A stretch of DNA of 64,000 nucleotides from an uncultured Pseudomonadota bacterium. Lineage in GTDB: Bacteria > Pseudomonadota > Gammaproteobacteria > Natronospirales > REEB76. The notes under the pieces were generated by a model. That model searched no databases. It was not told where the DNA came from and saw nothing but the letters and a program-made list of their open reading frames with translations. Shown here in pieces: positions 48,250 to 48,898 of the stretch; the stretch's first letter is position 1, and every line of letters begins with the position of its first letter. Made by a program: the position numbers and the translations under genes. The DNA is taken from the NCBI GenBank assembly GCA_963817285.1, contig CAWFOE010000029.1, positions 6,209-70,208 of the forward strand. The letters run 5' to 3'.

Positions 48250-48567
48250 CCTTGGCTTAAGACCATTCGGTGAGGGCTTTAGCCCTCATGGCCGCATATT
48301 TCGCCAGGGAAGGGTTGGAAGACCAAGATGAAAAATTAGCGTTTTTGGAGAGGTGGGTGAGGGCGATAGCCCTCACGACTGCGCAGGACGCGCAGGCCGG
48401 ACACGGCACCAGGGATGGTTAGAAGACCGAGATTGAAAAAATTAGCGTTTTTGGAGAGGTGGCCGAGTGGGTTCGGGCCACTGGCCCGAACGACCGGACA
48501 GGATGTCCGGGCGGGTGAGGGCACCAGGGATGGGTTAGAAGACCAGATTACACATAGCAGCGTTTTT
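48250..48567 (+). repeat. tandem ~105-115 bp units, each restarting with the tRNA-Ser leader and 5' end
   Basis: gcgtttttggagaggtgg occurs at 48339, 48445 and 48560. There are shared tails ccagggatgg(g)ttagaagacc and a tail-only copy at 48303-48338. Confidence 0.75.
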
Positions 48568-48661
48568 GGAGAGGTGGCCGAGTGGTCGAAGGCGCGCCCC
48601 TGCTAAGGGCGTATACGGGCTAAAACCTGTATCGAGGGTTCGAATCCCTCTCTCTCCGCCA
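48568..48661 (+). tRNA. tRNA-Ser (anticodon GCU)
   Basis: Acceptor ggagagg/tctctcc, anticodon loop ctGCTaa, long variable arm, T-loop ggttcgaatcc, encoded CCA. Confidence 0.9.
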
Positions 48662-48668
48662 ATTTCAA

Positions 48669-48703
48669 ATAAAAAGGGGGCTTTCCAAGCCCCCTTTTTA
48701 TTT
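48669..48703 (+). terminator. rho-independent terminator after tRNA-Ser
   Basis: aaaaaggggg-ctttccaa-gccccctttttatttg. Confidence 0.65.
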
Positions 48704-48708
48704 GAACT

Positions 48709-48898
48709 GTCGAGAGGGATTCGAACCCTCGATATCAAAGGCAGGTTCGACAAAATCGCCGGGGTTCGGCGCATGCGCCGAACGGGTTTGCCAGGAATGG
48801 CAAACCCCGGGTTCTTAGCGAGGCACGGAAAGCCGAGCTTAGAACGACTTGGACCGCCGAAGGCGGGCCCGACAACCCGGCGTAATCCCTCTCTCTCC
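48709..48898. repeat. inverted T-arm copy plus a direct tRNA-Ser 3' end split in the T-loop by a 133-bp hairpin insert
   Basis: gtcgagagggattcgaaccctcgat is the reverse complement of the T-arm. It is followed by ggttcga | caaaatcgccgggg...cggcgt | aatccctctctctcc. Confidence 0.7.

Follow-up and report, generated by a model that had tools for sequence, protein, structure and literature searches.

The DNA analysed here, referred to as the window, is a 64,000 nt stretch of a contig (CAWFOE010000029.1, positions 6,209 to 70,208) from an uncultured gammaproteobacterium, and the subject of this report is its tRNA-Ser(GCU) gene, which stands in an array of partial copies of itself. The gene (48568–48661) follows alaS (43593–46589), lysC (46611–47864) and csrA (47980–48183), an order common to dozens of Gamma- and Betaproteobacteria, in which tRNA-Arg(ACG) is usually encoded 10–700 nt further on. 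The array had been described in a first-pass annotation made from the sequence alone; it is real and had been correctly observed. The positions of its features, and of those at the other two tRNA genes of the window, are given in Table 1.

The 18-mer GCGTTTTTGGAGAGGTGG, which spans the end of the leader and the start of the tRNA, was found at exactly three sites in the 64-kb window (48339, 48445 and 48560), all in direct orientation as the first-pass annotation had stated; none of 100 shuffles reached three. The second and third copies ran on to GGAGAGGTGGCCGAGTGG (18 nt of the tRNA) and the first ended after 10 nt. Only the last copy is the gene, as had also been proposed, since ARAGORN and the Rfam tRNA model identified 48568–48661 as the sole tRNA in the array. 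The GC hairpins listed in that annotation were present as inverted repeats I3, I8 and I12. The conserved tail that it had noted, CCAGGGA(T/A)GG(G)TT(A/G)GAAGACC (family D2), was present three times, the first of them in a unit with no preceding tRNA fragment. The unit periods were 106 nt and 115 nt, and the GGGTT at 48532–48536 in Unit C is possibly a remnant of a T-stem. Tandem Repeats Finder detected no repeat at the array because the units were too diverged.

Downstream of the gene, on the same strand and beginning 51 nt past it with a terminator in between, was a second module (48712–48898). The first-pass annotation had placed a reverse complement of the T-arm at 48709–48733; this copy was present and exact over 23 nt, at 48712–48734. 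A second tRNA 3′-end, split within the T-loop into GGTTCGA and AATCCCTCTCTCTCC, was likewise confirmed, with an insert of 132 nt instead of the proposed 133 nt. The direct 3′ copy lacked GCCA and also a terminator of its own; several other downstream modules carried such a terminator. In relatives this copy continued through GCCA and a terminator (21 nt in L087, 59 nt in L090), and that of L088 also included GCCA. BLAST within the window showed that 48757–48807 had 94% identity, in reverse orientation, to 56042–56092 beside tRNA-Arg, and that 48800–48847 had 85% identity to 12144–12191. The composite block was carried by the relative L084 at 88.6% identity. The downstream flank folded far better than shuffles (z = −6.3), and in the predicted trailer fold the inverted arm pairs with the split direct arm and encloses the hairpins, a pairing that had been suggested from the letters alone.

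Table 1. Features of the tRNA-Ser(GCU) locus and of the tRNA-Gln and tRNA-Arg loci of the window.
Feature	Position	Strand	Remarks
Sigma-70-type promoter of tRNA-Ser, TTGACC-N18-TATCAT, palindromic spacer	48208–48237	+	10/12 consensus matches
Unit A: hairpin GTGAGGGCTTTAGCCCTCA(T); motif CCAGGGAAGG (48303–48312); AU-rich leader copy ending GCGTTTTT	48270–48346	+	families D2, D3; shared with L083
Truncated tRNA-Ser 5′ copy no. 1, positions 1–10, GGAGAGGTGG, end after GG	48347–48356	+	
Unit B: hairpin 48357–48376; hairpin CTGCGC-AGGAC-GCGCAG 48379–48395; GCCGGACACGGC 48396–48407; CCAGGGATGG 48409–48418; tail, leader copy	48357–48452	+	
Truncated tRNA-Ser 5′ copy no. 2, positions 1–18, end directly after D-loop GG	48453–48470	+	
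Unit C: hairpin 48471–48491; hairpin CCGGAC-AGGAT-GTCCGG 48494–48510; CCAGGGATGG 48524–48533; GGGTT 48532–48536; leader	48471–48567	+	
Functional tRNA-Ser(GCU)	48568–48661	+	ARAGORN; Rfam tRNA model 56.5 bits
Bidirectional intrinsic terminator, perfect palindrome, 20-nt arms, A-run and T-run	48664–48706		inverted repeat I2
Inverted copy of T-arm and part of acceptor 3′ strand	48712–48734	+	I1: reverse complement of 48630–48652, 23 nt, 100%
GGTTCGA, left half of pseudo T-loop	48745–48751	+	
Composite hairpin block, 132 nt; type-1 ends CAAAATCGCCGGG... and ...CCCGGCGT, other hairpin modules nested inside	48752–48883	+	
Direct copy of tRNA 3′ part from inside T-loop, AATCCCTCTCTCTCC	48884–48898	+	exact copy of 48643–48657
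tRNA-Gln upstream unit: truncated 5′ copy 10188–10209; hairpin module; T-stem 5′ half copy GCCAACCTAGGTT 10297–10309 (13 nt)	10188–10309	+	
tRNA-Gln downstream RtT-like module: inverted 3′ end, GGGTTCGA, type-1 block 10490–10575, AATCCTGGGTCCCCCAGCC	10460–10592	+	R1 83.9 bits
tRNA-Arg upstream unit: truncated 5′ copy 55384–55403; hairpin modules with CAGGATG and CAGGGATG loops; leader	55384–55595	+	
Three stacked modules downstream of tRNA-Arg; type-1 block 55757–55837	55714–56165	+	R1 80.6 bits

The tandem copies were also found outside this contig. A second assembly, the 175-kb ENA contig L001, contained the same array with one single nucleotide polymorphism, and the independently assembled relatives L083 and L084 had homologous two-unit arrays. 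An assembly artefact of a repeat-rich region is an extremely improbable explanation. Short-read Logan contigs of the same organism do break at the array, all of them ending in or just after csrA, as is expected for short reads because of the repeat, and the long contigs probably come from long-read assemblies. Against an artefact, the array recurred in the second assembly, the homologous two-unit arrays of relatives came from short-read assemblies and differed by compensatory substitutions, and the finished Escherichia coli K-12 genome holds the same architecture.

BLAST of the tRNA-Ser locus against the rest of the window revealed that every significant match adjoined tRNA-Gln or tRNA-Arg. 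All three tRNA genes of the window (tRNA-Gln at 10340, tRNA-Ser at 48568 and tRNA-Arg at 55596) shared one layout. Upstream, a truncated 5′ copy breaks after GG in the D-arm and is followed by a hairpin module; downstream, an inverted T-arm copy is followed by xGGTTCGA, a hairpin block and the tRNA 3′-end from AATCC. The 48486–48512 section of Unit C had 92.6% identity to 10225–10251 in the tRNA-Gln leader. At tRNA-Gln the leader and the real gene come after the copy of the T-stem 5′ half, and a terminator precedes the downstream module. The truncated 5′ copy of tRNA-Arg sits after the tRNA-Arg promoter. The block of the second module downstream of tRNA-Arg (55930–56085) was in reverse orientation, and the final inverted T-arm of that stack was at 56143–56165. 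The inverted T-arm copy recurred not only at these genes but also at E. coli tyrT and in relatives.

A low-GC island, between 10600 and approximately 13700, adjoins tRNA-Gln. Two pseudo 3′-ends of this tRNA (10574–10592 and 12242–12257) enclose the first ~1.6 kb, and low-GC open reading frames (ORFs) continue beyond the second. Among the island products are a TonB_C-like protein and a Rap1a-type immunity protein; a scan of five island ORFs revealed no integrase domain.

The closest species-level genome in the collection had 70% lysC identity, and closer relatives were reached through a protein database and then the contigs encoding those proteins. These metagenome contigs formed a ladder of 92, 92, 88, 87, 86, 82, 81 and 80% identity (lysC). 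Unit number varied along it: L090 (80%) had a leader of 47 nt and no module, L085 and L086 had one unit, and the two 92% relatives each had two, in different pairs (A and B in L083, A′ and C in L084), against three in the window. The exact 26–31-nt repeats of leader and tRNA fragment suggest that unit number changes by unequal recombination between them. The stems differed in a compensatory manner, CTGCGC/GCGCAG (Unit B) against CTGCAC/GTGCAG (L083), GTTCGGGCC/GGCCCGAAC against GTTCGGACC/GGTCCGAAC (L084, Unit C) and CCGGAC/GTCCGG against CCCGAC/GTCGGG, and the loop stayed AGGA in each; an exception to this loop was L086, which has ACGAA. It therefore appears that the leader hairpins are maintained by compensatory substitutions. 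In L087 an extra module was nested in the loop of the second hairpin.

The genes beyond the tRNA-Ser module differed in nearly every close relative (L083–L090), only L084 agreeing with the window, and this point is a synteny break. In the window tRNA-Arg(ACG) lies 6.9 kb beyond tRNA-Ser (intervening section 48662–55595), with genes for a DUF481 protein, a Tsp-type protease and others between them; the two tRNA genes are adjacent in most relatives.

The tRNA-Ser promoter begins 24 nt past the csrA stop codon. Its hexamers were invariant in eight relatives (80–100% lysC identity), the spacer varied between N17 and N18 and was palindromic in most, and no further promoter was predicted between it and tRNA-Ser. 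As the array lies between this conserved promoter and the mature 5′-end of the tRNA, it would be transcribed as a structured 5′ leader of ~324 nt, which RNase P would remove. For the upstream part this agrees with one of two explanations offered by the first-pass annotation, that of a structured pre-tRNA leader, and the upstream flank folded far better than shuffles (z = −5.6).

The position of this leader directly after csrA, together with its CAGGAUG-like loops, made a Csr/Rsm-type sponge our first lead. The leader, once released from the pre-tRNA, would then titrate CsrA, and its repeats would be retained for the binding of CsrA dimers by several GGA hairpins. Five CA(N)GGA(U/C/A)G motifs were present in the leader, a number not exceeded in any other stretch of this length in the window, whichever the strand, and several of them were in predicted hairpin loops. 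The sequence ACCAGGGAUGGU resembles the SELEX consensus (RUACARGGAUGU), the loops stay AGGA while the stems covary, and the L087 leader was expanded with more GGA-loop hairpins. The Rfam CsrB model matched weakly, over its full length and on the correct strand (15 bits, E = 0.078), but its cut-off is 71 bits and no Rsm family was listed. The lead was downgraded when the same modules were found at tRNA-Gln and tRNA-Arg, far from csrA, one tRNA-Arg block being in reverse orientation. GGA-in-loop hairpins were also unexceptional in number (4 against a mean of 1.2, sd 1.1, with 5–6 in other stretches of the window), and the plain GGA count of 10 against a mean of 5.5 was within the top 6.5% only. 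ACGAA replaces AGGA in L086, and the E. coli RtT block described below has no GGA loop. Finally, two Betaproteobacteria (L032 and L041) had arrays of truncated tRNA-Ser(GCU) 5′ copies ending in GAGTGGTC with a period of ~106 nt, in which the hairpins were unrelated and without GGA loops, and no csrA was encoded at the locus. The D-loop break point is therefore general, and the csrA neighbourhood is probably incidental. We regard the sponge as an unlikely explanation. Csr/Rsm sponges (CsrB, RsmY/Z) share with the leader the repeated A(N)GGA-loop hairpins and an adjoining csrA; in contrast to them, the leader had no GacA/UvrY-type promoter box on inspection and no terminator of its own before the tRNA.

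The hairpin block seen in the downstream modules of tRNA-Gln and tRNA-Arg, here called type 1, is ~75 nt long (CAAAATCGC...GGAGTA; consensus GACAAAATCGCCGGGAGCGATTTTGAACAG-CCGAAGGCTGG-CCCGAAGGG-CGGAGGGCAGGATGCCCGGAGTAA). A metagenome scan with a 27-nt pattern from inside the block returned at least 120 loci. Conservation spanned from ~GAC to ~GTAA and fell outside both ends. In helix 4, the last hairpin, 14–18 of 45 sequences had changed on both sides, with four pair types, and its A(N)GGA loop was invariant in the alignment. Overall, 98% of cells were paired, against 24–42% when the partners were slid. Helix 3 contained 11 G-U pairs, which indicates that one strand is the structured one. Among the matches listed, 19 of 121 copies were within 400 nt of a tRNA, all 19 co-oriented with it, and the other 102 were not near any tRNA. 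A copy in a group II intron and another after a 5S rRNA were co-oriented with the host RNA, bringing the total near RNA genes to 21 of 21 listed. The sites seen beyond the tRNA genes were a group II intron (L131), a position just past 5S rRNA where the block occupies a flanking hairpin's loop (L161), and a fixed position of a repeated ORF-like sequence (L128, L132, L158 and L169). The distribution suggests that RNAs which are structured or highly expressed tolerate the block in their loops, or that it seeks these loops.

The junctions of these blocks with tRNA sequence followed a rule. Among the matches listed, all 14 blocks downstream of a tRNA were flanked by xGGTTC(G)A, and in 13 of them 13–58 nt of the 3′-end of their own tRNA followed, counted from the T-loop (6 nt in the remaining one). 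All five listed upstream blocks were preceded by an exact copy of the 5′ part of the following tRNA, ending at position 14 or 22 (D-loop) or at 56/74 or 72/90 (T-loop). The type-1 block always followed ..GA with one extra A at the junction, that is in the T-loop (TTCGA^A) and in some D-loops. For the modules that start with GTTCGG or GTGAGG the preceding bases are GG, both in the D-arm and in the GGA-containing loops of other modules. The sites of the leader modules were GAGTGG^ (Ser), GGTAGG^ (Gln), GCTAGG^ (Arg) and GGTGG^ (Ser Unit B). The placement of modules in GGA-containing loops, as in L087, in L176 and after CCGGG^ in the tRNA-Ser downstream block, explains the nested composite blocks. 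A fragment of the neighbouring tRNA, ending or starting at the loop site, bordered each insert, and an intact copy of the gene was always kept. The modules were homologous between different tRNAs and between phyla. The first-pass proposal that the break points are specific D-loop and T-loop sites thus extends from tRNA-Ser to tRNA-Gln, tRNA-Arg and the listed blocks. Intermediates were also found: in L222 a block, a leader and the intact gene follow a tRNA-Ser(GCU) copy that is full as far as GGGTTCGA, L186 has an upstream tRNA copy with blocks in both the D-loop and the T-loop, and L173 has a tRNA-Gly copy interrupted in the T-loop beside an intact one. At the loci examined, uninterrupted T-loops were seen only in complete tRNA genes. 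Integron attC-like sites and the IS91 target (GTTC) were considered as sources of these junctions and dropped, as the junctions are not at G|TT or directly after GTTC.

This regularity bears on a rival explanation, in which the array arose by plain local duplication of the leader, or by decay of tandem tRNA-Ser copies, with no mobile element. The unit periods are near that of a tRNA plus spacer, the tail GGGTTAGAAGACC loosely resembles the T-arm GGGTTCGAATCCC, and tandem tRNA copies are common in relatives. However, one hairpin module is shared by the leaders of different tRNAs (Ser Unit C and Gln, over 27 nt), the junctions coincide in loop position between different tRNAs and between phyla, identity drops sharply at the junctions from 100% to none, and the Rfam tRNA model found nothing in the units at E ≤ 10. 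The metagenome copies also suggest that the modules move independently of the tRNA sequence, and duplication or decay alone is very unlikely.

The downstream modules correspond to a known repeat of E. coli. In the tyrT-tyrV-rttR section of E. coli K-12, the inverted T-arm GGGGAAGGATGAGAAGCTTCGA is followed by AAGGTTCGA, a hairpin block of ~68 nt and ATCCTTCCCCCACCACCA, and this unit occurs four times. E. coli RtT is a stable processed RNA of 171 nt, and its unit ends with the last 19 nt of the tRNA. The classical 178-bp repeat is said to have been described by Egan and Landy in 1978, Rossi et al. in 1981 and Bösl and Kersten in 1991 as holding a 3′ tRNA fragment from the same T-loop point, and the latter two reportedly found that the repeats are co-transcribed with the tRNA and processed. 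A covariance model (R1), built from environmental (metagenome) blocks, matched all four E. coli units at 11–22 bits and the modules of the window and its relatives at 41–84 bits. The Rfam RtT model (RF00391, gathering threshold 45 bits) gave 133–137 bits for E. coli and 52.5 (above the cut-off) and 42.2 bits for two tRNA-Ser(GCU) modules of L025. Below the cut-off were the position in L087 homologous to the tRNA-Ser module (34.9 bits) and the tRNA-Gln module of the window, a weak full-length match (24.4 bits). RtT-like modules, some in long tandem arrays, followed tRNA-Ser or tRNA-Arg in further proteobacterial genomes (L004, L005, L006, L015, L016 and L044), and E. coli genomes had from 1 to 14 RtT places each. 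As a 2024 preprint restates, the rttR gene encodes the rtT RNA, which is involved in processing of the tyrT transcript and may modulate the stringent response (10.1101/2024.07.17.603846). On this evidence the tRNA-Ser downstream module appears to be a diverged and expanded homologue of the E. coli RtT unit.

The L233 locus has an RtT-like module with tRNA-Tyr on one side and tRNA-Gly/tRNA-Thr on the other, in what appears to be a tRNA operon (tyrU-type order). If within the operon, it would belong to a polycistronic pre-tRNA transcript.

Taken together, we consider it probable that the tRNA-Ser(GCU) gene is nested in RtT-type tRNA-linked modules, small hairpin-rich non-coding elements at fixed positions of partial tRNA duplicates. 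The first-pass annotation had envisaged a miniature palindromic element that colonised the locus later. Such an element is involved, but it was present at the junction of every partial copy examined and is therefore unlike a later coloniser. As to mechanism, our preferred guess is that the segment from the tRNA loop site to the end of the element is mobilised in a strand- and site-specific manner. Such a segment, when re-inserted where the loop was left, would restore the gene and leave a truncated copy behind, which would account for the absence of uninterrupted pseudo T-loops. For the inverted T-arm copies, template switching at the quasi-palindromic T-arm and terminator would be an easier explanation.

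Several observations weigh against RtT-type modules at this gene or against their mobility. The tRNA-Ser downstream block was matched by neither R1 nor Rfam RtT (E ≤ 10), because its interior has been replaced by other hairpins, and only its ends and context agree. Simple insertion does not account for the inverted T-arm copy, for which template switching may be needed. The link between blocks and partial tRNA copies arises partly by ascertainment, and as the 27-nt search pattern lies within the block, helix 1 is without covariation information and the sample is biased to one subtype. ORF clustering found no recurrent recombinase or neighbouring ORF near the 120 listed blocks, and thus no mobilising enzyme; the clusters consisted of block translations, a few group II intron reverse transcriptases and ribosomal proteins. 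No convincing Y1 transposase or RAYT was found by tblastn in 64 kb of this genome and the fetched loci, a weak search with two query sequences, for IS200 TnpA and RAYT. Its sole match in the fetched loci was marginal (L234, 37 residues, 38% identity, E = 5.6e-4). The block has no terminal inverted repeats and no target-site duplication beyond one ambiguous A; its ends are ACAAAATC... and ...GGAGTA, with an inverted repeat of at most 2 nt. On the same two features a miniature inverted-repeat element derived from a DDE transposon was rejected. No plasmid sequence searched matched the block consensus.

A further extension, which we think doubtful, is that the RtT block is a mobile loop-targeting cassette. 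Its insertion into the D- or T-loop would spare the tRNA by carrying along the part of the gene that extends from the loop site to its own end, and its A(N)GGA loops, placed in abundant pre-tRNA leaders, might tie CsrA availability to tRNA transcription. If true, this would give the origin of the 178-bp repeats of E. coli tyrT, known since 1978, and of the 5′ arrays.

Other parts of the window also carried GGA-loop hairpins. The 11220–11560 section (+ strand), which directly precedes an uncharacterised 165-aa ORF, contained dense A(N)GGA-loop hairpins, among them GCCTACATGGATGTAGGC and GCAATGCATGGAGCAATTGC, and had the highest + strand counts of AGGA/A.GGA (11) and CA(N)GGA (7) in the window. 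A run of GGA-loop hairpins was present at 23960–24100 (− strand), between a terminator (24110–24145) and rpiA. A 50-nt unit of this run (24027–24076) had 90–94% identity to units in the unrelated metagenome contigs L131, L192, L234 and L208, and was tandemly triplicated in L143. An ordinary 6S RNA gene was found at 25614–25799 (− strand; Rfam, 95.9 bits).

To our knowledge, RtT has so far stood alone as an oddity of the E. coli tyrT operon; thousands of genomes carry an RtT annotation, and no origin or function has been accepted for it. Our analysis suggests that modules of the RtT type belong to something far more general, in which miniature hairpin elements, abundant in environmental Proteobacteria, occupy the D- and T-loop sites of tRNA segments duplicated both upstream and downstream of the gene, nest in one another and vary in number among close relatives. 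If true, this provides a concrete and testable origin for RtT. It would also warn annotators that 'pseudo-tRNA' fragments flanking a tRNA need not be island scars, and it would point to long, structured pre-tRNA leaders that might be processed into regulatory RNAs. The tRNA-linked repeats also account for breaks in short-read assemblies at such tRNA loci.

Among known systems, sites at which integrative elements insert into tRNA genes were the other explanation given in the first-pass annotation, which read the array as stacked attachment-site scars. Tyrosine-integrase elements would have inserted repeatedly into the T-loop (and D-loop), supplied replacement tRNA ends and been deleted almost entirely, the hairpins being leftovers of attP arms. 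The T-loop was reportedly described by Williams in 2002 as an integrase sublocation in tRNA genes. The window resembles sites of this class in its stacked direct repeats of the tRNA 3′-end that begin in the T-loop, and in the synteny break past the tRNA-Ser module, where gene content differs in nearly every relative. Displaced 3′-ends can each carry their own, different terminator (L087), and the AT-rich island at tRNA-Gln, 1.6–3 kb, lies between two pseudo 3′-ends. The modules differ from such sites in having almost no cargo and no integrase, either near any module of the window or in the tRNA-Gln island. The two tRNA-Ser 3′-end copies are 226 nt apart with no ORF between them, the repeats are 170–240 nt apart in many unrelated genomes, and no recurrent recombinase was found near the listed blocks, most of which (102 of 121) are not near a tRNA at all. 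The insert between GGTTCGA and AATCC lies inside the presumed crossover core, and neither inverted T-arm copies nor copies of the tRNA 5′-end are predicted by integration. In L090 the 59 identical nt of the repeat extend over the entire terminator, which suggests duplicated local DNA and not DNA borne by an element. Viral contigs were scanned for the T-loop/block junction (GGTTCGACAAAATCGC), and the 28 matches were all chance ones in coding DNA. We judge integration scars to be improbable.

A further comparison is with IS200/IS605-derived PATEs, and with REP/BIME sequences with RAYT, palindromic elements that are non-autonomous and move as single strands. Like them, the elements of the window are non-coding, have subterminal hairpins without terminal inverted repeats or a clear target duplication, follow a fixed short 5′ flank (..GA or ..GG), show a strict strand bias (21/21 listed) and nest in one another. 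They differ in that part of the target gene is duplicated along with the insert, an effect not seen with those families, and in that the conserved GTAG and the typical REP size are absent.

With E. coli RtT there are both differences and likenesses. The tRNA-Ser module differs from RtT in a block of 132 nt with nested hairpins, in a 3′ copy without GCCA or terminator and in the lack of an RtT match, and a terminator parts it from the tRNA, whereas the E. coli repeats are said to be co-transcribed. We know of no description of E. coli RtT with upstream arrays of 5′ copies, or as a dispersed element away from tRNAs. The upstream arrays, the site rule, the nesting and the dispersal of blocks away from tRNAs appear undescribed as far as could be found in literature searches that were swamped by organelle and Rett-syndrome papers. 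The likeness covers the whole plan of the unit: the tRNA-Ser module lies directly downstream of the tRNA on the same strand and has, in the same order, an inverted T-arm copy, xGGTTCGA, a hairpin block (~70 nt in RtT) and a direct copy of the 3′-end from AATCC in the T-loop. Tandem stacking of units is a further likeness, with a copy number that varies between strains in E. coli. The downstream half of the locus thus belongs to a known kind, RtT, although it falls below the Rfam threshold here.

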